Assembly (NCBI GenBank): GCA_964404855.1
Contig: CAYOLO010000001.1
Coordinates: 530,736 to 594,735 of the forward strand
DNA from: an uncultured Gammaproteobacteria bacterium
GTDB taxonomy: Bacteria; Patescibacteriota; Microgenomatia; CAYQLK01
Length of the DNA stretch: 64,000 bases
Direction of reading: 5' to 3'
Shown piece by piece: positions 1,204-63,689 of the stretch. The notes below the pieces were generated by a model. The model worked only from the letters and a program-made list of their open reading frames with translations, was not told the origin of the DNA and did not search any database. How positions within the stretch are numbered: position 1 is the stretch's first letter; every line of letters begins with the position of its first letter. The position numbers were made by a program, and so were the translations under genes.

Positions 1204-1237
1204 CGGGTTTGAGTATACAATATCAAGATAAAATTTT

Positions 1238-5149: not shown

Positions 5150-5151
5150 AG

Positions 5152-46214: not shown

Positions 46215-46577
46215 ATGAAAGCTTTTTGGTTGGTTTTTGCGATTACAATTACTTTTTTTGTTCTTGGTTGTTCTAAAGCTGGTTCGAACGCAGAAACTAA
46301 TAAGTTTGAGAGTGTTGTTTTAACTGTGGAAGAGGTTGCAAAACACGCATCAGAGGAAGATTGCTGGATATTAATTAGAAATAAGGTTTATGGTGTTACA
46401 GATTTTATTAATGAACACCCAGGTGGTAGTTTTAGAATAATCCCAAGCTGCGGTAAGGACGCAACCGAAGGGTTTGAGACACAGGGCGGTCGAGGATCTC
46501 ACAGTCAAGATGCATATCAATTATTGCCGGAATTTTTGCTAGGTGAAATAGGGGCAACAATTGAAATGAAAAGATAA
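46215..46577 (+). CDS. cytochrome b5-like heme-binding domain lipoprotein
   Basis: Lipobox LGC. EHPGG and a downstream GSHS His as the two axial ligands. Start is 24 nt after the previous stop. Confidence 0.6.
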   Translation: MKAFWLVFAITITFFVLGCSKAGSNAETNKFESVVLTVEEVAKHASEEDCWILIRNKVYGVTDFINEHPGGSFRIIPSCGKDATEGFETQGGRGSHSQDAYQLLPEFLLGEIGATIEMKR

Positions 46578-48224
46578 ATGCAAGAACAACTGCCCAATCA
46601 ACAAATTTCTTTTTGGAACAAACATTTATCTAAGTTTATATTCGTAGGCATTTTTATTGTTGCTAGTGTTATGCGTTTTATTGGACTTTCTGATGGTAAG
46701 AGCTTTGATATTAATAGAGCGGTAATAAAGGAAATTGTTCAAGTTCAACAGATAAACGGTGCGGTAGCTTATCAAAATTGGCCAATGTTGCGCCTAGAGG
46801 GTGCAAGATTTGTGCTGCCCAAGGGATTTGTACACAAAAACAGTGACCCATTTTTTGAGAGCATCTTACCGTCATTTTTGGTTTATCCGATATATTTTCT
46901 TCTAAGTTTTGATCTGGAAAAAATTATATTTGTATACTCAATTGTTGGGGGACTATCTGCTGCAATGGTCTTTTTGGCTGCTCAATTATTTTTAAGCAGA
47001 TTTAAATCACTTTTTGCGGGTATTTTTTACTCGTTTGGCTTTTGGCCGATATTTGAGTCGCATTTGTTACTCAATTTATCTTTTTCCCCGCTTCTAGGCA
47101 TTTTAATTTTTTATTTCACAATAAAAATTATTAAATACGGAAATGGCTTAAAAAATTGGATTTTTCTGACATTATTTTTATCACTCTCGATTCAGTTTCA
47201 GGCGATAAATATTTTATATGTACTCGCAACTTTGATTGCGTTCTTTTTGTTTCGCAAACCAGATACTTTTTTATCTTGGAAAAAAAACTTGTTCGTATTA
47301 ATTATTTTTGTTTTGTGCACACTGCCATTTATTATGGCCGAGGTTTTAGGCGGTTTTGAGCAGACACAAGCATGGCTTAGCTATTTACCTAGATTGTTGT
47401 TAATTAATATTGTCGATATTTATAAAGATGTTTTTGTATCTATTGGTCAAGTAGTATCGGTTTTTGTACTGCCGACTGTAATTGTTGAACCTTTTTATAA
47501 ATGGTTAATTGGGTTGATTTTTGTTTTGGTGTTATTTTTGAGGTTGCGATTTTTAAACCGAAATTCACAAAAACATGTTGTTGAATATTATCTATTAATT
47601 TTGCTCAGTGTATGCAGCATTATGATTTATTTTAACTATTTGGCATATTTTAAAAATTCTACCTATGATTTTACTTTGGTAAAAAGTTTAGGCTTCTTTT
47701 GGCCGATTTTGACAATCTTTTTAACGTATTCAGTTACAAAATCATACAGAGATAAATATTTCCCAATTACGGTGATTGTTGGTTTTTTCGTTTTAATGAA
47801 TTTGTTTGTTTGGGCTAAAAATTTGGACTCAAACAAATTAATAAACACTAGTTACAAATTAAAGACTCAGATTATTGACTTGGTAGCGTTAAATTCTGAC
47901 AATCATAAGTCAGAAATACTTTTGGAGCTAGAGAATTTTGATCAGTCTATCTTTGTATTTTTGATGAACCAACGGAATCATTTTATTTTAGATAAGATAA
48001 ACGGAACCGAAATTTCAACAGTAGATATTAAGTGGTTGGGTAATAATGTGTTGTTTGTTTCATTCATTGGTAGGGATGTAGTTTTTGTGGGCACGCGTCC
48101 GAATACTCCACGAGATAATTCTACTAGCAAGAAATATTTTGTAATTTCAGATCGAAATAATAGTGATCAAATTGGTGAAGAAGTAGGTAGGATTCAAAAC
48201 TTCAGACTGTATCAGCTCAAATAG
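46578..48224 (+). CDS. polytopic membrane protein, possible GT-C-type glycosyltransferase
   Basis: 548 aa, >10 TM. Context only. Confidence 0.4.
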   Translation: MQEQLPNQQISFWNKHLSKFIFVGIFIVASVMRFIGLSDGKSFDINRAVIKEIVQVQQINGAVAYQNWPMLRLEGARFVLPKGFVHKNSDPFFESILPSFLVYPIYFLLSFDLEKIIFVYSIVGGLSAAMVFLAAQLFLSRFKSLFAGIFYSFGFWPIFESHLLLNLSFSPLLGILIFYFTIKIIKYGNGLKNWIFLTLFLSLSIQFQAINILYVLATLIAFFLFRKPDTFLSWKKNLFVLIIFVLCTLPFIMAEVLGGFEQTQAWLSYLPRLLLINIVDIYKDVFVSIGQVVSVFVLPTVIVEPFYKWLIGLIFVLVLFLRLRFLNRNSQKHVVEYYLLILLSVCSIMIYFNYLAYFKNSTYDFTLVKSLGFFWPILTIFLTYSVTKSYRDKYFPITVIVGFFVLMNLFVWAKNLDSNKLINTSYKLKTQIIDLVALNSDNHKSEILLELENFDQSIFVFLMNQRNHFILDKINGTEISTVDIKWLGNNVLFVSFIGRDVVFVGTRPNTPRDNSTSKKYFVISDRNNSDQIGEEVGRIQNFRLYQLK

Positions 48225-48234
48225 CTTAATTGTG

Positions 48235-48308
48235 TGCGCCCGGCAGGATTCGAACCTGCGACCCTTCGGTTCGAAGCCGAATACTCTAATCCACTGAGCT
48301 ACGGGCGC
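48235..48308 (-). tRNA. tRNA-Arg (anticodon UCG)
   Basis: Reverse complement GCGCCCG-UA-GCUCAGUGGAUUAGAGU...loop CUUCGAA...GGUUCGAAUCC...CGGGCGC-A. CCA is not encoded. Confidence 0.8.
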
Positions 48309-48423: not shown

Positions 48424-48452
48424 TTGAATTGAGATTAGTTTAATGCTATAAT
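48424..48452 (+). promoter_or_regulatory. sigma70-type promoter for the fusion gene
   Basis: TTGAAT - 17 nt - TATAAT. ~75 nt upstream of the 48529 ATG. Confidence 0.45.
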
Positions 48453-48528
48453 CCCGCATCCAATATTGTGCTGTAGTAGCAGTACATTTTTTTGTGAATT
48501 AATAGTTTATTAAATGTAACTTATAGTA

Positions 48529-51500
48529 ATGAAATATTTAAACAAAATTACCTCTAGAACAAAGAGGATTTTTGTAAACCCTACAATTGAACACATAAAT
48601 CCCTTGAAAAAGGGCTCTATGATCGGTGCAGGTGTAAAAAAGCTCGATAAAGAGTTTATTACCCATACAACACTAATTCACCACAAATCAGCCGTGCACA
48701 CATTCATTTTGTGGCAAAAACTGTTTTTAATGGGGTTAATAGGGATATTTTTAATTGGATTAGCTTTAAATTGGCTGCTTACGTTACAAATATTTGTTGC
48801 ATTTTTAACAGTTATTTATTTTATCGATGTGCTTTTTAATTTGTTTTTAGTCGTAAAAAGCCTACATTTACCACCTGAGCTTGATTTTGATGATAAGGAA
48901 TTAGCCAAAATTAAAGAAAAAGATCTCCCGATTTATACAATCCTCTGCCCAATGTACAAAGAGGCACAAATCATCCCCTCGTTTCTTGAAGCAATTTCAA
49001 AACTTGATTGGCCGAAAAATAAGCTTGATGTACAACTTCTGCTTGAAGAAGATGATTTAGATAGTATTCATACGGCAAAAAATTGGGGTCTACCTAGTTA
49101 TGTCAGAGCGATTATTGTTCCTCATTCACAACCAAAAACCAAACCAAAGGCTTGTAATTACGGATTAAATATCGCTAAGGGTGAATACTTAGTTATTTAT
49201 GATGCTGAGGATATTCCGGACCCAAAACAGCTCAAAAAGGCATATTTAGCCTTTCAGACTGTTGATAAAAATGTCGTTTGTTTGCAGGCTAAGCTTAATT
49301 ATTTCAATCCACACCAAAACTTTATTACTCGATTATTTACTGCTGAGTACTCTCTTTGGTTCGATGTTGTGTTGCCTGGCTTGCAAGGAATTAATACTAA
49401 TATTCCTCTTGGAGGCACAAGTAATCATTTTAGAATCGATGACCTTAAGACTTTAGAAGGTTGGGATCCTTTTAACGTGACCGAAGATTGTGATTTGGGG
49501 GTTAGGCTATTTATGGAGGGCAAAAAAACCGCGGTAATCAACTCAACGACTCTTGAGGAAGCAAATAGTAAGTTTAAAAATTGGCTAAGACAAAGATCAC
49601 GATGGATTAAGGGATATATGCAGACTTATCTGGTCCATATGCGTGATCCCTATCAATTAGTAAAGAAACAAGGAATTCATGCGCTTTTCTTCAATTTAAT
49701 TGTCGGTGGAAAAATCGCGTTTATGTTTATTAATCCGTTTTTGTGGTTAGCCACAATTGGATATTTTGTTTTACATGCGCAACTCGGGGCAATTATCGAA
49801 TCTCTCTACCCTTCTTATATTTTTTATATGGCTTTGTTCAGCTTGGTTTTTGGAAATTTTTTGTACATGTTTTATTACATGATTGGATGTGCCAAGAGAG
49901 GCCACTGGTCGGTTATTAAGTATGTGTACCTTATTCCCTTTTATTGGATTATGACTTCAATTGCGGCAACTATTGCTCTACAGCAGTTGTTTTTCAAGCC
50001 TCATTATTGGGAAAAAACCGTTCATGGATTGCATCTAAGTAACCAAAAAGAGAAAGAACTGGCGGTTGATATGCCGGTATTTATTGATCAAGTAATAGAT
50101 AAAGAAAGAGCGGAAGGCTTCCCTGTTCGAATTATAGGAATCATTGTTTCGATTATCGGTCAACGAAAAGTGATTTTAAGTGGTGGAATGTTGGTTCTTG
50201 CTGGTATTTTTTCAAACTTTGTTAATTTTTTCTTCAACGCCTATCTTGGTAGAAGTTTGAGTTTTGAAGAGTTTGGAGTTTTAAGTTTATTAGGTAGTAT
50301 TTTGTTTATTTCTTCAATACCAATAAATGCTTTAGGATCAACAATTGCACACAAGACAGCGTTTCTTTTTGGAAAACATTCAAAATCATTTGCGCGCTCT
50401 AATTTGGCTTATTATCTAAGATTTTCTATTACATCAGCAATATTAACAACAATTATTTGGATTTTGCTTATTCCCTCGTTGACATCCTACTTTCAACTAG
50501 GGTCATCTATGGCGCTTATTTTATTCACTCCAGTGTGGTCAATTGGACTATTTGGTAGTACTGTGGGTGGTTTTATTGATGGAACCTTGTCTTTCGGTGT
50601 AGCAGCTATAGCATTGGCAGTTGAGGCGGTAACTAAACTTGGATTAGCGATTTTATTTGTTTGGATGGGATTATCTGATTATGTGTTTTTGGCAATTATT
50701 ATTGGATTATTTGTTCATTTGATTATAAATTTAATCTTTGTTCTAAAAGATAAAACGCTTTCAGATGAGCATATCTCAGGTCATTTTGAATTTAAATTTT
50801 ATTTGGCCTCATTTATTAGTGGTTTATCTAAACTAAGTTTTTTAAGTTTGGATGTTATTTTGGCGAAACATTATTTATCACCAGTTGAATCTGGTCAGTA
50901 CGCTCTTCTTAGTTTGACTGGTAAAATTGTATTTTTTGCTGGAACACTTTTTGCTCCTTTTATGCTTCCAATTGTTTCCAAAAAGTTGGGCGCGAACCAG
51001 TCAAGTGTAAAGGTATTTAAATATATTTTTATTTTAACCTTAGTTCCAGTATTACTTGCTTATATTGGACTGGGAGTATTTAGTCAAATCACCATTCCAT
51101 TATTATTTGGTGAGAAAGCTAAAGTTATTATTCCATTCGCCTCAATTTATTTATTTTCAATCGTACTATTTTCTTGTCTTAATCCAGTAATCAGTTACTT
51201 CCAGGCCAAAAGAGATTACATTTTTATTTATCAAGGCATGTTTACCAGCATAATTTTATATATCTTAATTCATTTTTTTCACAGAAGCCTTTCGGAGTTT
51301 GTGTCAATTATTTTTATAGCATCGTCGTTGAATACCATGTTTGCCATTTTGCTTTATATCTTTAATTCACAGGTTAAGTCATTAATTAGTAATTTTAGAG
51401 ATTTAATCGATTTGGCGTTTTCACGGTTTACGAGACAACGAACAAAAGAAAAAGATAAATTACAAATCCTAATTTTTAATTGGAGAGATACAAAACATGT

Positions 51501-52626
51501 TTGGGGTGGTGGAGCAGAGATTTATATACATGAAATTGCTAAAAATTGGGTGCAGAATGGACACCGTGTTACGGTCTTTTGTGGAAATGACAACAAATGT
51601 GACAGAAATGAAGTTATAGATGGTGTTCAGATAGTTCGTCGTGGGGGTTTTTTTACTGTTTATTTATGGGCATTCTTGTATTATGTGCTTAGGTTTCGTG
51701 GCTTGTTCGACGTGGTTATTGATTGTGAGAATGGTATCCCCTTTTTTACACCATTATATGTACGCAAACCAAAGTATTTATTAATTCACCATATTCATCA
51801 GGAGGTTTTTAGACAGCACCTCCGCTGGCCATTTAACTTTTTAGCGATGTTTTTAGAAGCTAGATTAATGCCTGTTGTATATTTTAATCAAAGAGTTATT
51901 ACAGTGTCAGAATCTTCAAAAATTGAAATATTAAAGTTAAAAATTGCAAAGTTTAAATCGATTGATGTTGTTAATCCTGGTGTGAATAATAGTGATTTTA
52001 AAACTAAGGACAAATTTCTAAACCCGACGATTATATATGTTGGAAGATTAAAGCCATACAAAAACATTGATATTGCAATTAATGCTGTTTCGTTGCTAGT
52101 TAAAAAAAATCCAACATTAAAATTTTTAATTGTTGGTAGCGGAGAACATGACATTTATTTAAAAAATATCGTAAAACAAAAAAATCTCACTAGTATTATT
52201 GAGTTTACTGGTTTTGTAGGTGAAGAGAAAAAGAATGAATTATTGGCAAAATCTTGGTTGATGATTCAACCATCGATGATGGAGGGTTGGGGAATAAGTG
52301 TGATTGAAGCCAATGCTGCAGGCACGCCAGTTGTTGCCTCTAATGTTAACGGCTTAAAAGACTCTGTTGTAGATTCAAAAACTGGAATTCTTGTTACTGT
52401 AAAAGACGCTAAAGCTTTGGCTAGTGCAATTGAAAAAGTTATACTTTCAGCTTCACTAAGATCTAGACTGTCAAGAAATGCGTTAGCTTGGGCAAAATTA
52501 TTCGAATGGGATATTAAGTCTAGTCAATTGATTAATATAATTTATAGTAATTTGTTTCTAGATTTACAGAAATCAAAGAGCAAAAAAGTAGCAAAAGAAA
52601 TTTTAAGCTCAGCGACAAATGAATAA
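48529..52626 (+). CDS. 1365-aa triple fusion: processive GT2 synthase (QxxRW) + Wzx/MOP-flippase-like multi-TM module + GT4 glycosyltransferase
   Basis: aa ~120-500 carry D, DxD (DAED) and QRSRW with flanking TMs. aa ~520-990 form ~12 TM with ...SPVESGQYALLSLTGKIVFFAGTLFAPFMLP (Polysacc_synt-like). aa ~1000-1365 carry NWRDTKHVWGGGAEIY...EGWGISVIEANAAGTPVVASNVNG (GT4). Confidence 0.75.
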   Translation: MKYLNKITSRTKRIFVNPTIEHINPLKKGSMIGAGVKKLDKEFITHTTLIHHKSAVHTFILWQKLFLMGLIGIFLIGLALNWLLTLQIFVAFLTVIYFIDVLFNLFLVVKSLHLPPELDFDDKELAKIKEKDLPIYTILCPMYKEAQIIPSFLEAISKLDWPKNKLDVQLLLEEDDLDSIHTAKNWGLPSYVRAIIVPHSQPKTKPKACNYGLNIAKGEYLVIYDAEDIPDPKQLKKAYLAFQTVDKNVVCLQAKLNYFNPHQNFITRLFTAEYSLWFDVVLPGLQGINTNIPLGGTSNHFRIDDLKTLEGWDPFNVTEDCDLGVRLFMEGKKTAVINSTTLEEANSKFKNWLRQRSRWIKGYMQTYLVHMRDPYQLVKKQGIHALFFNLIVGGKIAFMFINPFLWLATIGYFVLHAQLGAIIESLYPSYIFYMALFSLVFGNFLYMFYYMIGCAKRGHWSVIKYVYLIPFYWIMTSIAATIALQQLFFKPHYWEKTVHGLHLSNQKEKELAVDMPVFIDQVIDKERAEGFPVRIIGIIVSIIGQRKVILSGGMLVLAGIFSNFVNFFFNAYLGRSLSFEEFGVLSLLGSILFISSIPINALGSTIAHKTAFLFGKHSKSFARSNLAYYLRFSITSAILTTIIWILLIPSLTSYFQLGSSMALILFTPVWSIGLFGSTVGGFIDGTLSFGVAAIALAVEAVTKLGLAILFVWMGLSDYVFLAIIIGLFVHLIINLIFVLKDKTLSDEHISGHFEFKFYLASFISGLSKLSFLSLDVILAKHYLSPVESGQYALLSLTGKIVFFAGTLFAPFMLPIVSKKLGANQSSVKVFKYIFILTLVPVLLAYIGLGVFSQITIPLLFGEKAKVIIPFASIYLFSIVLFSCLNPVISYFQAKRDYIFIYQGMFTSIILYILIHFFHRSLSEFVSIIFIASSLNTMFAILLYIFNSQVKSLISNFRDLIDLAFSRFTRQRTKEKDKLQILIFNWRDTKHVWGGGAEIYIHEIAKNWVQNGHRVTVFCGNDNKCDRNEVIDGVQIVRRGGFFTVYLWAFLYYVLRFRGLFDVVIDCENGIPFFTPLYVRKPKYLLIHHIHQEVFRQHLRWPFNFLAMFLEARLMPVVYFNQRVITVSESSKIEILKLKIAKFKSIDVVNPGVNNSDFKTKDKFLNPTIIYVGRLKPYKNIDIAINAVSLLVKKNPTLKFLIVGSGEHDIYLKNIVKQKNLTSIIEFTGFVGEEKKNELLAKSWLMIQPSMMEGWGISVIEANAAGTPVVASNVNGLKDSVVDSKTGILVTVKDAKALASAIEKVILSASLRSRLSRNALAWAKLFEWDIKSSQLINIIYSNLFLDLQKSKSKKVAKEILSSATNE

Positions 52627-53519: not shown

Positions 53520-54323
53520 ATGAACTTTTTTAAAGTTAAACAAATTATTTCAATAAGTACACATAGCATATTATTGCCAAAATTATTAGATAAGAATGTT
53601 TTAAGCGTATTGTGTTACCACAGTTTTTCGTTTGACCAAAATCGGTATGCTGTTAATCTTGAAACATTTAAAAGACAGATTAGTGTGATAAAAAAACATT
53701 CGAGAATTATTTCAATCGATGAAGGATACTCAGAAATAAATAATTCAAAGATAAAAAAGCCTGCAGTTGTAGTTACTGTAGACGATGGCTATAAAGATGT
53801 ATTAATGATGGTTGATTTTATGACGAAAAACTCTTTACCAATAACTCTTTTTGTTATTTCTGATCGTAAGAATGCAAATCGAATTGAGTTAGATAACCAA
53901 TTGGAATTATTAACAAATACTGACTTAAAAAAACTTGTGAAGAATCCCCTCGTTACGATTGGATCTCATTCTGTGACTCACTCTAATTTTCTTTCCATTT
54001 CAAAAAAACAATTAGAATTTGAAATTTTTCAATCTAAGAGATCACTTGAGGAACTCTTAGGGGTAAACATAAAATATTTCGCATATCCTAAAGGATTGTT
54101 TAACTCTAGTATCGTTAAAATTGTAAAGAGGGCTGGATATATTGGCGCCTTTACCATTGAAGCGGGATGTATCAGCAAGAATACAGATAAATTTCTAATT
54201 CCTCGGACAATTATTGAAAAGCATCATAATGTATCCGAATTTCCTTCTGTTTATTGTTTGCCAAATTTTTGGCTTAGAAAGGCAACAAATCGATTCAACC
54301 TTTGGGGTAGGCTTCTTAATTAA
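53520..54323 (+). CDS. polysaccharide deacetylase (CE4 / NodB domain)
   Basis: TVDDGYKD (motif 1) and GSHSVTH (motif 2). Confidence 0.7.
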   Translation: MNFFKVKQIISISTHSILLPKLLDKNVLSVLCYHSFSFDQNRYAVNLETFKRQISVIKKHSRIISIDEGYSEINNSKIKKPAVVVTVDDGYKDVLMMVDFMTKNSLPITLFVISDRKNANRIELDNQLELLTNTDLKKLVKNPLVTIGSHSVTHSNFLSISKKQLEFEIFQSKRSLEELLGVNIKYFAYPKGLFNSSIVKIVKRAGYIGAFTIEAGCISKNTDKFLIPRTIIEKHHNVSEFPSVYCLPNFWLRKATNRFNLWGRLLN

Positions 54324-54324
54324 T

Positions 54325-55245
54325 ATGAATTTTAATAATACATATTCTGTTGCTATTCCTGCTCATAATGAAGAGCAAAATATTGCTTTTCTTTTGAAGC
54401 AGGTATTTGCACAAAAAACGGAAAAATTTGAACTAGAAAAAGTCGTTGTCTATTGTGATGGCTGTACGGATAAAACCGTGGAAATTGTAAATTCTCTGTG
54501 TAGTAAATATCCTAAGCTTGTTTGTTTGACCGATATAAAAAGATTAGGAAAGAGTCAAAGGTTAAATATGGCATATAGCGATAATTGTAGTGATTTTTTA
54601 ATTACTTTAGATGCTGACCAGGCTATAGTAGGCATCGATGTATTTACTTGTTTATTAACTAATTTTTCAAATAAGTCTGTTCAACTTGTTTCGGGTAATT
54701 CTTACCCTCTGGAATCAAAAACCTATTTTGGAAAAGTTGTGAGAGCAAAGGAATTAATTTGGTTAAACGCAAGAGAGAATTATAGGAATGGAAACAATAT
54801 CTATAATATTTCTGGATCGATTGTCGTTCTCCGAAAGGGTTTTGCAAAAAAAATAAAATTTCCAAGAAATTTAGTTTCGGATCAACAGTATCTTTTTCTT
54901 AGTTCGAGAAAAATTAACAATGAAGCCTTTGTATTTGAGAAGAATGCAAAGTCTATGTACTACCTGCCGGATAATTTTTTAGATTATATTCAATTCGTTT
55001 CAAGACTAAAAAATGAAAATGATTTGATAAATAAATGTTTTTTGAATATTGAACATGAATATTATATATCTATTAGTTCCAAGATTTTAGGTACGACAAG
55101 ACAGTTTATGCAGGACCCATTATCTACCTTGTTTGCTTTAATTCTGATGTTGATTACCAATAATGTTAATTTGAAGAAATCTAAGCTTAATTCGGCAGTT
55201 TGGGAGCCAGTTATTTCTACCAAAAATATTTATAAGATCAAATAA
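54325..55245 (+). CDS. GT2 glycosyltransferase
   Basis: In-frame ATG at 54325 is preferred over the overlapping upstream start. SVAIPAHNEEQNI...CDGCTDKT...LDADQ. Confidence 0.75.
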   Translation: MNFNNTYSVAIPAHNEEQNIAFLLKQVFAQKTEKFELEKVVVYCDGCTDKTVEIVNSLCSKYPKLVCLTDIKRLGKSQRLNMAYSDNCSDFLITLDADQAIVGIDVFTCLLTNFSNKSVQLVSGNSYPLESKTYFGKVVRAKELIWLNARENYRNGNNIYNISGSIVVLRKGFAKKIKFPRNLVSDQQYLFLSSRKINNEAFVFEKNAKSMYYLPDNFLDYIQFVSRLKNENDLINKCFLNIEHEYYISISSKILGTTRQFMQDPLSTLFALILMLITNNVNLKKSKLNSAVWEPVISTKNIYKIK

Positions 55246-55247
55246 AA

Positions 55248-56165
55248 ATGAAAAAACAAAAACCAACCCTGTCCATTTATTTACCTGCTCACAACGAAGA
55301 GAAGGGAATCGCTCGGACCTTGATGACAATTTTGAATCAGAAGCGGTCGAATTTTACTCTTCAGACTGTTACGGTCCTTTGCGATGGGTGTACAGATTCT
55401 ACAGAGGAAATTGTTAAAAAAATTGGTAAAAAGCATCCTGTAGTTAAGGTAATAAATGATGGCAGAAGACTTGGCAAAGCAGGTAGAATTAGCCATTCTC
55501 ACGCGTTAGCAACAAGTGATATTTTGATAAATATCGACTCAGATTGTTTGCTACCTGACAAGCAATGTCTTGTAGAAGTTGTCAAAAAATTTGATAATCC
55601 TAGAGTTGGATTAGTTGGTGCACATGATTTACCTCTCCCAGCAAGAGGGTTTTTTGAGCATATTGCTGTTTATAATATTAATATCTGGCATCAAATCCGA
55701 AAAAATGTAAATGGTGGAAAAACGTTGCACAATCATCACGGATGCATAACAGCTAAAAGTAAAGCTGTTTACAAAAACGTCATAATTCCCACAAATATTA
55801 TTGCAGACGATGATTTTGTTTTTTTCAGGACACTTGAATTGGGATTTGAATTTGATTATGCTCCCAAAGCGCGAATGTATTATCGTGCACCAACAAATTA
55901 TTCTGACTATATGAAACAACAGGTAAGATTTATTAATCTTAAGAATGAAATCTTTATAACTTTTGGAGAATGGACAAAAGATTATTACCCCATTCCTATG
56001 AATTATAAAATAAAGGGCATACTAGTTTCACTATTAAAAGACCCAATTCTTTTTTCTTTCGCAATATTACTAAATGTATTAATTAGAATGCGAGCAGATT
56101 TAGAAACAATTGACGCTCAAAGTGATGGTACTTGGGAGACGATAAATTCTTCAAAAGATTTGTAA
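55248..56165 (+). CDS. GT2 glycosyltransferase
   Basis: LSIYLPAHNEEKGI...CDGCTDST...IDSDC. Paralogous to the previous gene. Confidence 0.75.
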   Translation: MKKQKPTLSIYLPAHNEEKGIARTLMTILNQKRSNFTLQTVTVLCDGCTDSTEEIVKKIGKKHPVVKVINDGRRLGKAGRISHSHALATSDILINIDSDCLLPDKQCLVEVVKKFDNPRVGLVGAHDLPLPARGFFEHIAVYNINIWHQIRKNVNGGKTLHNHHGCITAKSKAVYKNVIIPTNIIADDDFVFFRTLELGFEFDYAPKARMYYRAPTNYSDYMKQQVRFINLKNEIFITFGEWTKDYYPIPMNYKIKGILVSLLKDPILFSFAILLNVLIRMRADLETIDAQSDGTWETINSSKDL

Positions 56166-56166
56166 T

Positions 56167-57852
56167 ATGAGACATTTTACTAAAACATTACTATTTTTAA
56201 ACAATAGACTGCTAGGCAGAATAACTTATATCACAAGAGCGTTCTCGCCCAATATTAATACAATGAAGAAGTTTTCAAAACCTTATTCGTTCTTTAAAAA
56301 ACTGGTTTTACCAATAATTTTTATATTTATACTGGTAATACTCTTACTTTCTGTTAAAGGAATAAATGGTAATCCAAATGATAATAATCTTAATGACGTT
56401 CAATGGAAGGATTCTGGTCCATTGGAGTTATCGCCAGACAGGGGACGTTTTGCCTTAACATATTCACTTGCAGAAAATCGATCAACTAAGTTTAGTTTGC
56501 CGGTTGCTCGTTTTGCGACTCCTGATTTAGGTTATAAAGATGGAAATTATGTTTCGCTATTTGCACCAGGAGTAAGTTTTATTATCTTGCCTGGATATTT
56601 GATTGGGCGAATATTTGATTTATCCCAGTTTGGATCCTTTCTTATAATTGCGTTTTTTGCATTCATTAATTTTTGGTTAATTTACTTGATTTCAAAGTCA
56701 CTTGGTTCAAAAAAATATTCATCACTTATCGCTGCAGGAATTTTTAGTTTAGCTACTCCTGCATTGGCTTATGGTGGTTCTTTGTATCAGCACCATATTT
56801 CTACATTTTTTATTTTATGTTCAATTTGGATATTATTTCGCTTTAAAAGCGCGTGGTCATTAATACCGATTTGGCTGATGATTGGATCATCTGTAGTGGT
56901 TGATAATCCAAACTTTTTTATGATGTTCCCTATTGGTGTTTTTGCATTGGGACGAGTGGTAAGCTTCGAAAGAATCAGTTCAAGGGTGTCAGTTAAGATA
57001 AAGCCGTTTGTAATTTTTACAGTCTTGATCGTGATATTACCACTAGCTGCGTTTATGTACTTTAATAAACTTTCTTATGGAAGTCCTTTTCAGTTGTCTG
57101 GTACAGTTAAGAGTGTTCAGGAAATTGACATTAATGGCCAACCAGCTAAGTCAAGTTTGATTAGCGAATCGAATGTTGATGTGAGCCTAGATCTGCAAGC
57201 CAGTGAGGAGAAGCATTCTAAGTCGGCGGTAGGTTTTTTCGAATCACGAAACATGTTAAATGGTTTTTATACTCAGTTTTTTAGTCAAGATCGTGGAATT
57301 TTGTTTTTCTCACCAATAATTTTATTAGGATTACTTGGAATAATTATTTCTTACAAAAAATTAAATTCTATTCAAGTACTGTTATTGTCAGTTTTAGCTG
57401 CAAATTTGGCGATTTATGCCATGTGGGGCGATCCTTGGGGAGGTTGGGCTTTTGGTTCTAGATATTTGATACCGGCATATGCCATCCTTGCCATATTTCT
57501 TTCGAGTGTTTTGACAAATTGGAACCGAAAATTCTTGTTTATTTTGCTGATGTATCCAGTGTTAATTTATTCGGTTGGAGTAAATATGGTAGGAGCATTG
57601 ACCTCTAATCGAAATCCCCCAAAGATAGATATTTTGGCATTAGAAAAATTATCAGGTGTGGAGCAAAAATATACAGTTGAGAGAAATTGGGATTATTTAC
57701 AAAAAGACAGTAAGGCGTTTGTTTATAGAGCTTTTTTGAGCGGCAGAGTTAGCCCTATTTTCTATTTTTATACTCTGGCAGGATTATCGGTTGCTATGTT
57801 CACATTTCTGATTGTTGCTAATTATTTTGATAAGACAAAGGAAGAAAAATGA
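56167..57852 (+). CDS. polytopic membrane protein, possible GT-C-type glycosyltransferase
   Basis: 561 aa, ~12 TM. Confidence 0.4.
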   Translation: MRHFTKTLLFLNNRLLGRITYITRAFSPNINTMKKFSKPYSFFKKLVLPIIFIFILVILLLSVKGINGNPNDNNLNDVQWKDSGPLELSPDRGRFALTYSLAENRSTKFSLPVARFATPDLGYKDGNYVSLFAPGVSFIILPGYLIGRIFDLSQFGSFLIIAFFAFINFWLIYLISKSLGSKKYSSLIAAGIFSLATPALAYGGSLYQHHISTFFILCSIWILFRFKSAWSLIPIWLMIGSSVVVDNPNFFMMFPIGVFALGRVVSFERISSRVSVKIKPFVIFTVLIVILPLAAFMYFNKLSYGSPFQLSGTVKSVQEIDINGQPAKSSLISESNVDVSLDLQASEEKHSKSAVGFFESRNMLNGFYTQFFSQDRGILFFSPIILLGLLGIIISYKKLNSIQVLLLSVLAANLAIYAMWGDPWGGWAFGSRYLIPAYAILAIFLSSVLTNWNRKFLFILLMYPVLIYSVGVNMVGALTSNRNPPKIDILALEKLSGVEQKYTVERNWDYLQKDSKAFVYRAFLSGRVSPIFYFYTLAGLSVAMFTFLIVANYFDKTKEEK

Positions 57853-59459
57853 AATTCTCATTAAATTTTTCGTTTGATTTAAAACGATTTTCATTTCTAA
57901 ACCGCGAAAAAGTTTGGGTATTTGTTATGCTCTTGGTTGTTTCTGGAGTTTCGATTGGAAGTTTTATTTTTTACTGGCAGAATGGTTTGGGCTTGTCTTA
58001 TAACGATGCACGATCCCATTTAGATATAGGCAGACGTGTTGTAGAGGGATTGAAGCCTGGTATTGCTCAGCTAGGTTCTGTTTGGTTGCCATTACCTCAT
58101 GCTCTTATGATTCCGACTATTTGGGATGACTGGATGTGGCATTCAGGTTTGTCTGGAGCAATTATTTCAATGCTATCTTTTGTTTCAACTTGTGGAGTTA
58201 TTTATATGTATCTAAAGAAAATTCATGTTGGTCTTTTAGGAAGACTGACAGGGGTTACGGTTTTTGCAACTAACTTAAATGTTTTGTATCTGCAGTCAAC
58301 AGCGATGACAGAACTATTGTTAATAGCTCTTATGACAACTGGGTCTTATTACCTGCTCAACTATATGCAGACAAATAAAATAATTGATTTGGTAAAAGCT
58401 GGATTTTGGGTGATGCTTTCTACTTTGACTAGATATGATGGTTGGTTATTGCTTGCTATAACTGCAGCTCTGGTTACAGGTAGGGCGTATTTTACTAGAG
58501 GATACAAAGCCGCAGAAGGCGTATTTTTGATGTTCTGTACTCTAGCAGGACTTGGCGTAATTTTATGGCTACTTTGGAACCAGCTTATTTTTAAGGACTT
58601 TTTATATTTTGCACTTGGGCCTTATTCAGCAAGATCTCAACAAAAACAACTTGAAGATGCTGGGGTTTTAGCTACGAAGTTTAATATTTTGTTTTCCATA
58701 AAAACTTACACTTATGCGCTGGTCTATAATATTGGACTTGTACCAATTATTTTGAGTGTGGTTGGAGCGATTGTTGCCGTCTGGGATAAAAAGCTTACTA
58801 CAAATACCAAATTTGCGTTAATTGCACTGTTTTCTCCCTTAATATTTAATATTTTGGCTTTGTATTTGGGTCATTCGGTTTTGTTTGTTCAAGGAATTTC
58901 TGGGGACACTTGGTTTAATGTTAGATATGGAATAATGATGATACCGACGGTTGCAATATTTGCAGGATTTTTACTAGATAGACTTGTTAAGTTGAGGATT
59001 GTTTTTATTGGATTATTCCTATTAGTAACGTTTTTCTCTTTTATTAACGCGGATACTGTAACGATTGATGATGCCAGAGTCGGTTCTAGTCAGAAAAATG
59101 TGTCAGAAGTATCTGGTTGGTTGGAAAAATATGCGAAAAACGAAAAGGGTTTTGTGATGATTTCTGCAGCTAGTCATGATGCGATAATTTTTTCATCAAA
59201 TTTACCGATGAAGAGATTTATTCATGAAGGTACGGGCGCATACTGGGACGCTGCTAGCGAGAATCCTGATTTGTGGGCAAGATGGATAATAATGAGAACT
59301 AATGATATGAATGATTCTACATTCAGGAACGTAATGGACAAACCTGGGCTTGCTAATTATGATTTAGTCGGTAAATATCCGTTTGCTGATATTTATGAGC
59401 TAAATGAGAAATATTTAAAGGATTTAAACACTAAGCCAGTTTTTAAGGGGCAAAAATGA
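57849..59459 (+). CDS. polytopic membrane protein, possible GT-C-type glycosyltransferase
   Basis: 536 aa, multi-TM, soluble C-terminal ~130 aa. Overlaps the previous gene by 4 nt. Confidence 0.4.
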   Translation: MKFSLNFSFDLKRFSFLNREKVWVFVMLLVVSGVSIGSFIFYWQNGLGLSYNDARSHLDIGRRVVEGLKPGIAQLGSVWLPLPHALMIPTIWDDWMWHSGLSGAIISMLSFVSTCGVIYMYLKKIHVGLLGRLTGVTVFATNLNVLYLQSTAMTELLLIALMTTGSYYLLNYMQTNKIIDLVKAGFWVMLSTLTRYDGWLLLAITAALVTGRAYFTRGYKAAEGVFLMFCTLAGLGVILWLLWNQLIFKDFLYFALGPYSARSQQKQLEDAGVLATKFNILFSIKTYTYALVYNIGLVPIILSVVGAIVAVWDKKLTTNTKFALIALFSPLIFNILALYLGHSVLFVQGISGDTWFNVRYGIMMIPTVAIFAGFLLDRLVKLRIVFIGLFLLVTFFSFINADTVTIDDARVGSSQKNVSEVSGWLEKYAKNEKGFVMISAASHDAIIFSSNLPMKRFIHEGTGAYWDAASENPDLWARWIIMRTNDMNDSTFRNVMDKPGLANYDLVGKYPFADIYELNEKYLKDLNTKPVFKGQK

Positions 59460-60352
59460 AAACATTAAAACCTCCAAAGGTTTCAATTGTCATTGCTGCT
59501 CATAATGAGGAAAAGAACATTCAAAATATTTTAAATTCGATTGCTCTTCAGGTAATGAATGATTTTGTTTTGTGCGAAATATTAGTATTCTTGGACGGAT
59601 GCACTGATACAACTAAAGAGAAAATATTAAATCTAGAATCGATATTGCCTATTGAAATTATCGATGATAAAAAAAGACTTGGAAAGGCACAAAGAGTAGC
59701 TCAAAGTATTAAAATTTCCAATGGACAAATTATTGTTTTTTTGGATGCAGATGTAGTTTTTATAGGGAAGCATTCATTGCAAAATTTAGTTTTTAGTTTT
59801 AGAAATTCAAGAGTCGGTCTTGTGTCGGGGAATGATTTGCCAAAAATCCCAAAAAATCACATTCAAAAAGTCTCCTCATATTTTTTTGAGACATGGGGTC
59901 AGATAAGAAAATCAAAACAAGATTCAATTCATAATATTCATGGAGCATTTTATGCAATAAAAACTCAAAGTTTTCTAAAAATAAAAATTCCAAAGGATTT
60001 GATATCAGACGATCAGTTTTTCTATATTTTTGCTAAAAAAAACAATATTGGTTTCGTTTTTTGTGAAGACGCTACTGTAAGCTTTGAACTGCCAAGTTCG
60101 CTATTTGGATATCTGCGACAATCTGCTAGATTTATTTTCTTTAATAAAAATATGTTTAAAGAGTTGGACGGTATAAATGAAAAATATCAGAGCCTCCCAA
60201 AACCGCAATATTTCAGTATTTTATTTAAAAGGTTTTTAAGGAACCCAATATATTTAACAGAGGCAATAATTTTGCAAATAATCGTAAGACTGTTTATTCA
60301 TCAGCTTACTAGAGATATTAATAGAGGTAAATGGCAACAGATCAACAAATGA
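59456..60352 (+). CDS. GT2 glycosyltransferase
   Basis: VSIVIAAHNEEKNI...LDGCTDTT...LDADV. Confidence 0.75.
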   Translation: MKTLKPPKVSIVIAAHNEEKNIQNILNSIALQVMNDFVLCEILVFLDGCTDTTKEKILNLESILPIEIIDDKKRLGKAQRVAQSIKISNGQIIVFLDADVVFIGKHSLQNLVFSFRNSRVGLVSGNDLPKIPKNHIQKVSSYFFETWGQIRKSKQDSIHNIHGAFYAIKTQSFLKIKIPKDLISDDQFFYIFAKKNNIGFVFCEDATVSFELPSSLFGYLRQSARFIFFNKNMFKELDGINEKYQSLPKPQYFSILFKRFLRNPIYLTEAIILQIIVRLFIHQLTRDINRGKWQQINK

Positions 60353-61251
60353 AAAGTAAGAACAATATTACAATTACACTTGGTATCCCCACTTGTTATG
60401 GAGGAATTGGTTTGTTGCGAACAGTAAAGAGCATACTAAAGAGTGCAAAAGACTATCCAAAGTTTGAATTTTTGATTTTCGCAGATAGTGTGCCTTTTCC
60501 AGATGAATTAAAGAACAAATTAATAGAACTCGGTGTAAAACTAAAAGAAAATAATGGTTCTGAGAGTCAGCTTGCAAAAATTGGTCAAATTATTTCAAAT
60601 GCTTCTGGAGAAATACTTATTCTTACGCAGGATGACGTAAGGTTTGGCTCAAAAACCGTAGATGAAATAGTCAAGAAGTTTCAAACAAATGATGATGTTG
60701 GTATGGTTACAGTCAATATTCAGCCTGAACCATCCGAATCGTTCATGGAACGAGTTGTTCTTCCAGGGAGCAATATCTCTTATTTAATCAGTCAATTGTG
60801 GAATAAAGGTGATAATTATTTGGCCGCAAATGGTCGATGTTTAGCATTTAACATTGAAGATGCTAGGAAAATGAGAATGCCCAACAAACTAGTCAACTCA
60901 GACGCTTATATTTATTTTGAAATGAAAAGAATTCGATCAAAAGTTGTGCATGCTTCAAAAGCAATAGTATATAATCGCAACCCACAAAATATTCATGATT
61001 TTTTAAAACAAGCCGGAAGATTTCGCATTTCCCAATTTGAGCTTGTGCCCTATTTCAATTTTGATTTGTGTGATTTTTATCGTATTCCAAAATCTATTAG
61101 TTTTAGAGCATTTATTCAGATTCTTATTAAAAATCCTTTTTATACATTTTGTTACATTTTTCTCTTGATATTTAGTAGACAAAAAAAGACAAATTTTGAG
61201 GCTAATTCAAATGTCATGTGGGAAGCTGCTACTTCGACAAAATCTAAATAA
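60331..61251 (+). CDS. GT2-like glycosyltransferase (divergent)
   Basis: ITITLGIPTCYGG...LTQDDV (DxD). Confidence 0.5.
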   Translation: MATDQQMKSKNNITITLGIPTCYGGIGLLRTVKSILKSAKDYPKFEFLIFADSVPFPDELKNKLIELGVKLKENNGSESQLAKIGQIISNASGEILILTQDDVRFGSKTVDEIVKKFQTNDDVGMVTVNIQPEPSESFMERVVLPGSNISYLISQLWNKGDNYLAANGRCLAFNIEDARKMRMPNKLVNSDAYIYFEMKRIRSKVVHASKAIVYNRNPQNIHDFLKQAGRFRISQFELVPYFNFDLCDFYRIPKSISFRAFIQILIKNPFYTFCYIFLLIFSRQKKTNFEANSNVMWEAATSTKSK

Positions 61252-61342: not shown

Positions 61343-62116
61343 ATGAAAGCATTAATATTAGCTGGTGGGTTTGGAACCCGAATTAGTGAAGAGTCTGGAA
61401 TCAGGCCAAAACCGATGGTAGAAATCGGAGGTAAGCCTATTTTGTGGCATATAATGAAGATATACTCTTCCTATGGCATAAATGATTTTGTCATCCTTTG
61501 TGGTTATAAAAGTCATGTTATTAAGGAATATTTTGCTAACTACCCGCTTTATAATTCAGACGTGACGTTTGATATTGCAAATCATACTCAAATTATTCAC
61601 AAAAACGCCTCTGAAAATTGGAAGGTAACTCTTGTCGAAACGGGTGAAGATACTCTTACAGGTGGACGAATAAAGCGTGCGAAAGAATATATTGGGGATG
61701 AAACGTTTTGTCTGACTTACGGTGATGGCGTTGCAGATATTAATATAGATAAGCTGGTCAAGTTTCATAAGAAAAATGGAACAAAAGCTACGGTTACGGC
61801 CGTTCAACCTACTGGACGATTTGGAGTGTTCAATCTTCAAGCTGATGAAATTAAAGTTGCTAGTTTTAGAGAAAAAGAGGCCGTTGATGGCGGGTGGATA
61901 AATGGTGGATTTTTTGTACTTGAGCCATCTATTCTTGATTATATTGTTGATGATTCGACGGTTTGGGAACAAGATCCAATGAAAGTCTTGGCCAATGAAG
62001 GTAATCTTGCTTCCTTTAAACATTCGGGTTTTTGGCAGTGTATGGATACTTTGAGAGACAAAAATTATTTAGAAGAATTATGGCAAAAAGGAGAAGCTCC
62101 ATGGAAAAATTGGTAA
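61343..62116 (+). CDS. rfbF: glucose-1-phosphate cytidylyltransferase
   Basis: MKALILAGGFGTRISEESGIRPKPMVEIGGKPILWHIMKIYSSYGINDFVILCGYKSHVIKEYFANY is near-identical in pattern to RfbF/DdhA. Confidence 0.9.
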   Translation: MKALILAGGFGTRISEESGIRPKPMVEIGGKPILWHIMKIYSSYGINDFVILCGYKSHVIKEYFANYPLYNSDVTFDIANHTQIIHKNASENWKVTLVETGEDTLTGGRIKRAKEYIGDETFCLTYGDGVADINIDKLVKFHKKNGTKATVTAVQPTGRFGVFNLQADEIKVASFREKEAVDGGWINGGFFVLEPSILDYIVDDSTVWEQDPMKVLANEGNLASFKHSGFWQCMDTLRDKNYLEELWQKGEAPWKNW

Positions 62117-63150
62117 ATCATCAAAAAATATTATTAACTGGTATTGACGGTTATATTGGTGTGCAGCTTGCACAAACTTTGGTCAAAAATGGTTTTAAGG
62201 TCATTGGATTGGATACAGGTTATTACCGAAATGCTTGGCTTTATAATGGAGTGACTGAAATTTTCCCATCAGTCGTGACTAAGGATATACGTGAAGTCAC
62301 AGCTGAGGACCTTAAGGGATTTGATGCAGTAGTGCATCTTGCTGAATTGTCTAATGATCCATTGGGCCAAAATGATCCCGAGTTGACCTTCGACATTAAT
62401 CATAGAGGAACGATGAATTTAGCAAATTGTGCTAAAGAAGCAGGAGTTAAAAAGTTTGTTTATTTTTCATCGTGTAGTGTATATGGAGCATCAGATAATA
62501 TTGCAAATGAAAATAGTCCTGTTAATCCCCTTACTGCATATGCGCAAAGCAAAATAATGAATGAGGAAGCATTAATGAAACTGGCTGATGATAATTTTAG
62601 CCCTACAATAATGCGTAATGCTACGGCGTATGGTGCTAGTCCACGGATGAGATTTGACCTTGTTGTTAATAATCTTGCAGGATTAGCTTGGACTACTGGT
62701 GAAATAAAGATGGACAGCGACGGAACACCATGGAGGCCATTGGTTCATATTCTTGATATATCAAAAGCAGTTGTGTGTATCTTAAATGCAAAGAAGAGTG
62801 TTGTTCATAACGAAATATTTAATATTGGGGATACAAAGGCAAATTACCAGATTAAACAAATTGCTGAGATAATCGGTAAAACATTTACAGATTGCAAAAT
62901 ATCTTTTAATTCAAATTCTTCAGACAAGCGTAATTATAGAGTTAACTTTGATAAAATTAATTCTACATTGCCTGGATTTGCATGTGACTGGACTGTCGAA
63001 ATGGCGGTTAAAGAACTTGAAGACATTTTTAAAAATATTAATATGACGGAAGAAACTTTTAAGTCGAAGAATTTTACAAGATTAAAACAGATCGATTGGC
63101 TTAAAGAAACTGGTCAAATCGATGGAAAATTATTTTGGAGGAATAAATAA
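62101..63150 (+). CDS. NAD-dependent epimerase/dehydratase family protein (extended SDR)
   Basis: Start at the ATG preceded by SD AAAGGAG. LLTGIDGYIG (GxxGxxG variant), SSCSVYG, YAQSK. Not RfbG-like. Confidence 0.7.
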   Translation: MEKLVNHQKILLTGIDGYIGVQLAQTLVKNGFKVIGLDTGYYRNAWLYNGVTEIFPSVVTKDIREVTAEDLKGFDAVVHLAELSNDPLGQNDPELTFDINHRGTMNLANCAKEAGVKKFVYFSSCSVYGASDNIANENSPVNPLTAYAQSKIMNEEALMKLADDNFSPTIMRNATAYGASPRMRFDLVVNNLAGLAWTTGEIKMDSDGTPWRPLVHILDISKAVVCILNAKKSVVHNEIFNIGDTKANYQIKQIAEIIGKTFTDCKISFNSNSSDKRNYRVNFDKINSTLPGFACDWTVEMAVKELEDIFKNINMTEETFKSKNFTRLKQIDWLKETGQIDGKLFWRNK

Positions 63151-63689
63151 TGAAATTTTTAGAGACAAAACTAAAAGGTGCTTATGTTGTCGAGTTAGAA
63201 AAAAGAGAAGACGACCGAGGTTTTTTTGCTAGAACTTGGTGTAAGAATGAGCTAGAGGCAATTGGACTTAATGCTAGTGCTGTTCAAATGAACATGAGTC
63301 GAAGCAACAAAATCGGAACACTTAGAGGTATGCATTATCAGGCGCTGCCTTTTGGTGAAACAAAATTGATTCGAGTAACTAAAGGAAAAGTTTTTGATGT
63401 AATTATTGATCTTCGACCAGAATCAGAAACATATAAACAGTGGTTTGGAGTTGAACTAAGTGATGAGAATTATAAAATGCTATTTGTGCCAGAAATGTTT
63501 GCTCACGGCTTTGTTACATTGACTGATGATGTTGAGGTTACTTATTTGGTAACTCAATTCTATACTCCAGAAGCAGAAAGGGCTGTAAGGTACAATGATC
63601 CACAATTCGCTATTGTATGGCCAGTTCCAATTACATCAGTTTCCGATAAAGATGCAAATGTAGAAGATTATATGGAGGAAATAAAGTAA
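63150..63689 (+). CDS. rmlC: sugar-nucleotide 3,5-epimerase (RmlC family)
   Basis: RGFFARTW...GTLRGMHYQ...KLIRVTKGKVFDVIIDLR...FVPEMFAHGF is canonical RmlC. Confidence 0.85.
   Translation: MKFLETKLKGAYVVELEKREDDRGFFARTWCKNELEAIGLNASAVQMNMSRSNKIGTLRGMHYQALPFGETKLIRVTKGKVFDVIIDLRPESETYKQWFGVELSDENYKMLFVPEMFAHGFVTLTDDVEVTYLVTQFYTPEAERAVRYNDPQFAIVWPVPITSVSDKDANVEDYMEEIK

Follow-up and report, generated by a model that had tools for sequence, protein, structure and literature searches.

A conserved fusion of a synthase-like GT2, a MOP-type membrane domain and a GT4 in a Patescibacteria (Microgenomates-type) bacterium

By combining homologue searches, profile comparisons and structure prediction, we find that the open reading frame (ORF) at positions 48529–52626 of a 64,000-nucleotide stretch of contig CAYOLO010000001.1 (the window) codes for a real and conserved membrane protein that combines several enzymes, in a bacterium of the Patescibacteria (Microgenomates type). 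The ORF runs unbroken on the plus strand from an ATG to a TAA, specifies 1365 amino acids (aa) and carries three modules in one reading frame: a synthase-like family 2 glycosyltransferase (GT2; module B), a membrane domain assigned by predicted fold and transitive homology to the PST/Wzx-like group of the MOP superfamily (module C), and a family 4 glycosyltransferase (GT4; module D). A preliminary description, drawn up from the letters of the window, had proposed a single polypeptide fusing a GT2, a flippase-like module and a GT4, and the ORF, the Pfam matches and the relatives all agree with it. The protein probably helps to build a cell-surface sugar polymer.

Among 5.8 billion proteins searched, 2931 matched, and the best 120 of them supply the details given here. 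All of these 120 cover 96–100% of the query; they are 1333–1642 aa long and come from ENA, NCBI, JGI and Logan assemblies. Those with an organism name belong to Patescibacteria/Microgenomates (Gottesman-, Woese-, Levy- and Curtissbacteria), and the databases call them 'glycosyltransferase' or, at JGI, 'cellulose synthase/PNAG synthase-like' or 'XagB'. Across the GTDB contigs taken at one genome per species, at least 600 stretches match two B-specific peptides, and 599 of them were confirmed as members of the B family. With more than 100 independent full-length homologues at this coverage, the frame is not an artefact of assembly or frameshift, and the fusion, whose occurrence in related genomes the preliminary description had left to be checked, is widely present. 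We see practically no chance that a chimaeric assembly or a sequencing frameshift has joined separate genes: a 1365-aa protein from an independent source is 97% identical to that of the window, single-ORF A-B-C-D or B-C-D forms (A being a further N-terminal module of most relatives) have been recovered by many projects, in more than 30 species-level genomes, and the junction and linker regions can be aligned across relatives. What can be said for an artefact is that a few related loci have B and C in different frames or show duplicated partial matches (B followed by a separate B-C-D), some of which could be errors or true fissions.

The window gene is, as far as sequence comparison goes, an ordinary member of an abundant, uncharacterised family, in a short form that lacks module A. 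Its architecture had been called unfamiliar; in the literature we found no description of the fused architecture or of Patescibacterial envelope glycosyltransferases, whereas the sequence databases hold such proteins in plenty under the bare name 'glycosyltransferase'. Many GTDB records of contigs with the cluster (L002, L003, L007, L010, L012, L016 and others) are titled 'uncultured Gammaproteobacteria', 'Pseudomonadales' or 'Bdellovibrionales'; such titles look unreliable and are not to be taken as a sign of the family in Proteobacteria.

Modules and modular relatives

Module B spans aa ~30–500, and its Pfam matches (PF13632, PF13641 and PF00535) fall on aa 136–441. It contains the motifs EEDD (173–176), DAED (225–228), VTED (317–320) and QRSRW (355–359), of which the last three, together with the catalytic residues of EEDD, are invariant in alignments of 18 and of 48 sequences. 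The best NCBIfam matches are CelA, the cellulose synthase catalytic domain (E = 4e-16), and PgaC_IcaA (2e-14), whose profile aligns to aa 116–490 over model positions 27–393 of 407; the scores lie below the curated cut-offs (58 versus 699 bits for CelA, 53 versus 422 bits for PgaC_IcaA). An AlphaFold2 (AF2) model of the module (predicted local distance difference test, pLDDT, 85; predicted template-modelling score, pTM, 0.85) has hyaluronan synthase (HAS) and BcsA as its top 23 Foldseek matches in the PDB, with E-values of 4e-14 to 3e-11 over 450–520 columns, followed by PcManGT and chitin synthase. PcManGT gives the highest target-normalised template-modelling scores (TM-scores), 0.66–0.69, at an E-value weaker than those of HAS and BcsA.

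Hydropathy marks two helices at aa ~60–110 and a hydrophobic block at 383–489. Positive-inside counts over 18 homologues, on which the topology is based, place the N-terminus inside, followed by transmembrane helices 1 and 2, the catalytic domain inside, a helix leading out (~383–414) and a helix leading back in (~429–456). Since both the K/R-rich linker (a mean of ~10 K/R over the homologues at aa 489–545, linker included) and the beginning of module C lie in the cytoplasm, the helix at 460–489 must be interfacial. As modelled, B resembles a synthase of PgaC/IcaA size in which interface helices accompany 2+2 transmembrane helices. The invariant KPHYWEKTxHG, which comes after the interfacial helix, is placed where BcsA has its gating loop and may, by analogy, serve as one. 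The conserved stretch at aa 1–113 follows module A in the long-form relatives. In two homologues (P0025 and P0082) the otherwise short, charged B–C linker carries an insertion of 50–70 aa.

Module C shows ~12 hydrophobic segments between aa ~547 and 946. Structure prediction from an alignment of the window fragment with 47 whole homologues gave a model (pLDDT 89.4, pTM 0.87) whose best 50 Foldseek matches in the PDB are all MurJ, MATE or WzxE, over ~440 columns and with TM-scores of 0.6–0.7 (E = 1.3e-6 for MurJ and 1.5e-5 for the lipid III flippase WzxE), at 13–17% identity to solved MOP structures. Pfam bears on the module through its relatives: among 41 orthologous middles PF01943 matches 11 (E up to 0.1), PF13440 4 and MatE 3; one orthologue (P0093) reaches 53.5 bits across the whole PF13440 model (cut-off 23) and 31.8 bits against PF01943 (cut-off 28.2), and a stand-alone C relative (P0121) passes PF01943 with 36 bits. 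On the predicted fold and by transitive homology, C is thus placed in the PST/Wzx-like group, the sequence link itself being transitive only. The Polysacc_synt-like segment quoted in the preliminary description, SPVESGQYALLSLTGKIVFFAGTLFAPFMLP, is found at aa 782–813, and residue D775 of the module is conserved. Both ends of C are predicted to be cytoplasmic (N-in, C-in, by positive-inside counts over the 18 homologues), which is consistent with a following GT4 that needs the cytoplasm.

A phmmer search with C alone against 1.84 billion representatives yielded 132 clusters at E up to 1e-30, among them stand-alone C and the fusions C-GT4, C-GT2, C-GT4-GT2, C-GT4-GNAT, C-GT2-GT4 and C-kinase-GrpB; on these sequences, C shows itself to be an independent unit, repeatedly tethered to cytoplasmic transferases. 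The idea that the middle only prolongs the membrane part of a BcsA-like synthase, and is no flippase domain, could draw on the lack of a Pfam match in the window's own middle; it is refuted by the complete MOP fold, shared with MurJ, MATE and WzxE over ~440 columns, by orthologues that score above the PF01943 and PF13440 cut-offs, by the occurrence of C alone and in fusions with no GT2 synthase, and by the end of B's own membrane helices at ~aa 490, so that we give it a vanishingly small probability.

In module D, PF13439 matches aa 994–1153 (56.5 bits) and PF00534 aa 1165–1318 (143.7 bits), both above their cut-offs, and the EX7E pair E1252/E1260 is invariant in the 18-sequence alignment. Its matches to MshA, TarM and PimA in the PDB, to Agl16 (full length) and to PelF are all generic, none being specific. 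Domain scans and topology prediction, which the preliminary description had suggested, have thus upheld its division of the protein: the N-terminal third as a GT2 of processive-synthase type with D, DxD, QRSRW and flanking transmembrane segments (Pfam, motifs and the HAS/BcsA fold), the middle as a Wzx/MOP-flippase-like module of twelve helices (a MurJ/MATE/WzxE fold along the full length, orthologues that pass Pfam, and a separate gene in some genomes), and the C-terminal third as a complete GT-B GT4 (Pfam and EX7E).

Most homologues are ~200 aa longer than the window protein because of the additional N-terminal GT2, module A. The best NCBIfam matches of A are ArnC (1e-29), PgfS, AglJ, a dolichyl-phosphate hexose transferase and PpgS, and A is therefore of the polyprenyl-phosphate sugar synthase type (ArnC/GtrB-like). 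The window's best relative of A is a GT2 ORF of 231 aa at 1238–1933 on the plus strand (29% identity). We mapped the four modules on 80 species-level loci and checked which of them share a frame; the counts are approximate, some loci reaching a contig end. With a slash for a break between frames, about 25 loci have A-B-C-D, about nine the B-C-D form of the window, about ten A-B/C-D, about four B/C-D and about four B/C; eight to ten have A-B-D without C (in two of these, C follows downstream as a gene of its own), and B or A-B stands alone in 10–12. A Saccharimonadales MAG (L066) has A-B-D with C as a separate gene. C-D recurs as a unit, as a gene of its own beside A-B or as stand-alone proteins of ~830 aa. 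That the modules are joined and split in so many ways is a strong argument for A, B, C and D acting in one pathway.

Gene neighbourhood and membrane partners

Coordinates of the gene, its modules and its neighbours are collected in Table 1. The preliminary description had credited the gene with a well-formed promoter of its own and a position right after a tRNA-Arg. The promoter match is present, and identical in the closest relative (L016), but such matches are frequent by chance in this AT-rich DNA (33% G+C), a consensus scan finding four sigma-70-like sites where 2.6 are expected in shuffles; the tRNA-Arg(TCG) does lie at 48234–48308, but on the opposite (minus) strand. The hairpin of the 5' leader has no Rfam match, Rfam finding six tRNAs only in the whole window, and a role for it as an attenuator is only a guess. 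At its other end the fusion gene is translationally coupled: its stop codon overlaps the ATG of a kinase-like gene, in ATGAATAA, and the fusion gene is therefore the head or a member of an operon and not a free-standing gene. In another lineage a relative of module C (P0188) is joined with a GrpB domain and a kinase domain of APH type, which, together with the coupling, hints at a phosphotransfer step in the pathway.

Table 1. Location of the fusion gene, its modules and the surrounding features in the window
Feature	Positions	Strand	Basis or remark
Sigma-70-like promoter match, TTGAAT-17 nt-TATAAT, TG before the -10 hexamer	48424..48452	+	Consensus scan, 10/12
Terminator-like hairpin and T-run in the 5' leader, between promoter match and ATG	48467..48496	+	Stem kept, loop differs in L016
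Whole fusion ORF	48529..52626	+	B-C-D in a single frame
Conserved cytoplasmic N-terminal stretch (SMxGAGV...ITHTTL), then two transmembrane helices, aa 1–113	48529..48867	+	Alignment, hydropathy, positive-inside counts
GT-A catalytic domain of module B, aa 116–370	48874..49638	+	Pfam, NCBIfam CelA and PgaC_IcaA, motifs, HAS/BcsA fold
Two transmembrane helices (~383–414, 429–456), probable interface helix 460–489, KPHYWEKTxHG motif, aa 371–500	49639..50028	+	Secondary structure of the model, positive-inside counts
B–C linker, variable, charged, cytoplasmic, aa 501–545	50029..50163	+	pLDDT <50, variable length in alignment
Module C, MOP-superfamily (PST/Wzx-like) domain with 12 transmembrane helices, aa 546–950	50164..51378	+	AF2 and Foldseek, Pfam matches of orthologues
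Module D, GT4 (GT-B) with EX7E, aa 985–1345	51481..52563	+	PF13439, PF00534, GT4 matches in the PDB
Kinase-like gene, 299 aa	52619..53518	+	ATG overlaps fusion stop; weak Choline_kinase/RIO/Bud32
Polysaccharide deacetylase, best named matches IcaB and PgaB	53520..54323	+	PF01522
Two GT2 genes (54325–55245, 55248–56165)	54325..56165	+	TTG at 54214 is an alternative start of the first
G1, polytopic membrane protein of 561 aa, possibly GT-C-like	56167..57852	+	Weak NCBIfam LA_3751/LA_3752 match, 52 bits
G2, polytopic membrane protein of 536 aa	57849..59459	+	Near-invariant neighbour of module B
Two more GT2 genes (59456–60352, 60331–61251)	59456..61251	+	Pfam and NCBIfam scans
Glucose-1-phosphate cytidylyltransferase, epimerase/dehydratase, RmlC-type 3,5-epimerase	61343..63689	+	TIGR02623, PF01370, TIGR01221

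Several of the downstream genes recur beside module B. The deacetylase, which matches NCBIfam IcaB over its full length (5e-15; 55.7 bits against a cut-off of 248), has a homologue in 26 of the 80 related loci, and GT2 genes like the pair that follows it occur in more than 40. For the two polytopic proteins, G1 and G2, co-occurrence was counted over related loci whose downstream sequence extends for 9 kb or more. G1 tracks module D, being present in 46 of 50 loci with D versus one of eight without it, and G2 is found in 53 of 58 loci and in every architecture class, including B-only. The LA_3751/LA_3752 family that G1 weakly matches is a 'putative glycosyltransferase' family of Leptospira. G2, ~60% identical across Patescibacteria and better conserved than module C, has a conserved C-terminal soluble part; it has 1919 homologues, the best 120 of which bear no Pfam domain and are, where named at all, mostly 'hypothetical'. 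Weak PMT/PMT_2 matches (E ~1e-4) appear in three of 31 members of the G2 family, and the G1 and G2 families are marginally related (hhalign probability 46%, E = 2e-4). On these weak signals both are probable, not established, GT-C-like enzymes, and G2 may be the most novel item of the region. Farther downstream, the cytidylyltransferase scores 423 bits with TIGR02623 (cut-off 300) and the 3,5-epimerase 172 bits with TIGR01221 (cut-off 156).

Among the ORFs scanned, which lie mainly at 36–63 kb and 0.8–9.9 kb and leave out most of 10–36 kb, no Pfam family of a WbaP/WecA-type initiating transferase was seen, and none of Wzy or O-antigen ligase in the three nearby polytopic proteins (46578–48224, 56167–57852 and 57849–59459). 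The suggestion of the preliminary description that the fusion makes a self-contained polymerise-decorate-export machine fares poorly: the protein is the short form of a four-module family in which most relatives have an extra N-terminal GT2, its gene is translationally coupled to the next and sits in a conserved cluster with two polytopic proteins, GT2s and an IcaB-like deacetylase, and module C is dispensable or unlinked in many relatives.

Candidate pathways and known systems

Every module has a known superfamily, no curated family-level model is passed by any of them, and the combined architecture is not described in the literature we found. With HAS, BcsA and PgaC/IcaA, module B shares a GT-A domain with D, DxD, TED and QxxRW, N- and C-terminal membrane helices and interface helices, and with PgaC/IcaA in particular a profile that aligns end to end and an IcaB/PgaB-like deacetylase nearby; the window protein differs from all of them in having apparently only 2+2 membrane helices, its covalently joined MOP and GT4 modules and G2 as a near-invariant partner. 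We recognised no PilZ domain and no PgaD/IcaD-type partner, the latter without a search aimed at PgaD/IcaD. Module C has the twelve helices, full-length fold and N-in/C-in topology of Wzx/WzxE and MurJ, and differs from them in lying between two glycosyltransferase modules and in belonging to a clade often fused to cytoplasmic enzymes. PcManGT (PDB 6yv7), which Gandini et al. reportedly described in 2020 as a crenarchaeal membrane GT2 with a 'minimal cellulose-synthase-like fold', resembles B in combining a GT-A domain with a small bundle of membrane and interface helices; it is a single-module archaeal enzyme with no flippase or GT4 fused to it.

Two multi-component systems offer further parallels. 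In Streptococcus pyogenes, the Wzx-type flippase GacK is proposed to serve a C55-phosphate (C55-P)-sugar/GT-C system, and the GacI/GacJ–GacK–GacL set (PMC8035078) is matched here by a GtrB-like module A in most relatives, a Wzx-type flippase and polytopic neighbours with weak GT-C signals; in contrast to Gac-type systems, a synthase-like GT2 and a GT4 are joined here with the components in one polypeptide, module A is missing from the window protein, and the GT-C identity of the neighbours is putative. The core of the Pel system pairs the GT4 PelF with PelG, a PST-like membrane protein of twelve transmembrane helices for which a conduit role is proposed (PMC7112168). Pel and the present system have in common a cytoplasmic GT4 with a MOP-like membrane protein and no recognised initiating transferase, whereas the window protein stays below the PelF cut-off (43.3 versus 100), has no PelG Pfam match and adds a GT2 synthase module, and no PelD/PelE-like gene was recognised among the Pfam-scanned ORFs near it. 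Membership of a PNAG (poly-N-acetylglucosamine), Pel or cellulose system was rejected, the curated cut-offs being missed widely (synthase 53 versus 422, IcaB 55.7 versus 248, PelF 43.3 versus 100, CelA 58 versus 699).

The reading that we prefer, and hold tentatively, is that the synthase-like GT2 is coupled to a flippase exporting a lipid-linked sugar, made by cytoplasmic transferases, for the use of extracytoplasmic membrane enzymes. All catalytic domains of the fusion would be cytoplasmic and fed by nucleotide sugars. Module B, together with G2, would make a beta-linked glycan at the membrane, possibly one containing N-acetylglucosamine, because the synthase is PgaC/IcaA-like and the deacetylase IcaB-like. 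Module D would glycosylate a polyprenyl-phosphate-linked carrier, as would module A in the relatives, for which the stand-alone GT2s may substitute here; module C would flip the lipid-linked sugar to the outer face, where G1 and G2, as GT-C-like enzymes, would transfer the sugar onto the polymer or the wall. Such a scheme would follow, by analogy, the logic of Gram-positive multi-component transmembrane glycosylation with a Wzx-type flippase, to which a synthase-type GT2 has been added. In its favour stand the domain assignments and invariant motifs, the varied combinations of the modules across the 80 loci, the likeness of A to polyprenyl-phosphate sugar synthases, the repeated tethering of C relatives to cytoplasmic transferases, the predicted topology, the neighbouring G1, G2, deacetylase, GT2 and CDP-sugar genes, and the precedent of GacK. 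A number of results weigh against it. Many relatives have B with no C within 10 kb, so that the flippase is not obligatory for B, and the topology analysis gives B itself no more than 2+2 transmembrane helices, a smaller number than in HAS or BcsA, which makes self-sufficient polymer translocation doubtful. Module A is absent from the window protein, and its best counterpart in the window lies at a distance of 47 kb. B and D score far below every curated NCBIfam cut-off. The window's middle 463 aa alone match nothing in Pfam even at E up to 10 and nothing in NCBIfam, and a profile of the 41 orthologous middles, run against the PDB sequences, found no MOP protein and only a spurious orexin-receptor match. 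Profiles of the G1 and G2 families likewise found no match among the PDB sequences, their GT-C nature being a matter of weak matches only.

Nearly as likely as the preferred reading, if doubtful in itself, is a single lipid-linked assembly line of Wzx-type or archaeal Agl-type logic, in which A or the GT2s, then B and D, would act in turn on polyprenyl phosphate, B being non-translocating, before C flips the finished glycan and the polytopic neighbours polymerise or transfer it outside. The apparent four transmembrane helices plus interface helices of B would suit such a role, as would its top target-normalised TM-scores with PcManGT, an archaeal N-glycan mannosyltransferase; A matches AglJ and the dolichyl-phosphate hexose transferases, D matches Agl16 at full length, an A-type start on polyprenyl monophosphate would explain why no WbaP/WecA was met among the scanned neighbours, the relatives of C are joined to many different transferases, and the modules A-B-C-D could stand in the order in which the pathway proceeds. 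A processive synthase is nevertheless what the best fold matches by E-value (HAS and BcsA) point to, along with the invariance of QRSRW, TED and the motif at the gating-loop position, typical of such enzymes; B alone or A-B, with no C or D within 10 kb, occurs in about a dozen species, and the IcaB/PgaB-like deacetylase is suggestive of a polymer like PNAG.

In BcsA the gating loop is followed by two more transmembrane helices, and PgaD/IcaD is a putative supplier of membrane helices to PgaC/IcaA. Module B ends where PgaC/IcaA ends, with few transmembrane helices, and C comes directly after the gating-loop-like motif, at the place of those two further helices of BcsA. One might accordingly picture a hybrid export in which the MOP domain, like PelG, is part of a polymer conduit and supplies the helices missing from a minimal four-helix synthase, or exports the product of the fused GT4; the recurrent C-D unit does parallel PelG and PelF (PMC7112168). 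We consider this decidedly unlikely, given that D reaches only 43 bits with the PelF model (cut-off 100), that none of the 41 orthologous middles has a PelG Pfam match, that A-B-D and B-only forms do without C, and that the B–C linker is long, variable and of low confidence in the model. We also know of no MOP protein that has been shown to conduct a polymer. Unlikely too, in our estimate, is an undescribed envelope-polymer route of Patescibacteria in which a minimal four-helix GT2, unable to export alone, would form one machine with the MOP domain (as conduit or coupled flippase) and G2. If true, it would blur the division between synthase-dependent and Wzx-dependent pathways, and the fused protein would stand at the centre of a major surface glycopolymer peculiar to this ultra-small, host-attached lineage.

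A large part of bacterial diversity falls to the Patescibacteria, which live attached to host cells and whose envelope chemistry is, to our knowledge, almost unknown. The B family, present in at least 599 species-level genomes and highly conserved, unites enzymes of pathways that are usually taught as alternatives. Gene fusions are a natural guide to activities that work together; should the coupling be real, its product could be the dominant surface glycopolymer and hence a likely determinant of host attachment, and the single polypeptide would offer a compact target for studying how glycan synthesis is coupled to membrane translocation.

Other features of the window

Upstream of the fusion gene, a 120-aa protein (46215–46577, plus strand) combines a hydrophobic N-terminus with a lipobox-like LGCS and a cytochrome b5-like haem-binding domain. 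Its neighbours are small membrane proteins on one side and, on the other, a polytopic protein of 548 aa and unknown family (46578–48224), to which the G1 family proved unrelated by hhalign; synteny with L016 extends over the whole block. A second glycan cluster, of ABC-transporter type, occupies 781–9905 on the minus strand and has the lowest G+C in the window (27–29%); it comprises an ABC-2 permease, an ABC ATPase, a methyltransferase, two GT2s, a GT4 and a 559-aa protein of unknown family. Here a GtrA-family flippase ORF (781–1560, minus strand) overlaps the module A-like GT2 ORF at 1238–1933. The GtrA domain is confined to the C-terminal 113 aa, the gene probably starts at an internal Met, and the two form a divergent GtrA/GtrB-like pair. 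At 28461–34598 (minus strand) a protein of 2045 aa carries fibronectin-III, laminin-G/concanavalin-like and purple-acid-phosphatase N-terminal-like domains; it is a giant protein, probably of the surface or for adhesion, in a region of 42–47% G+C against ~33% around it.

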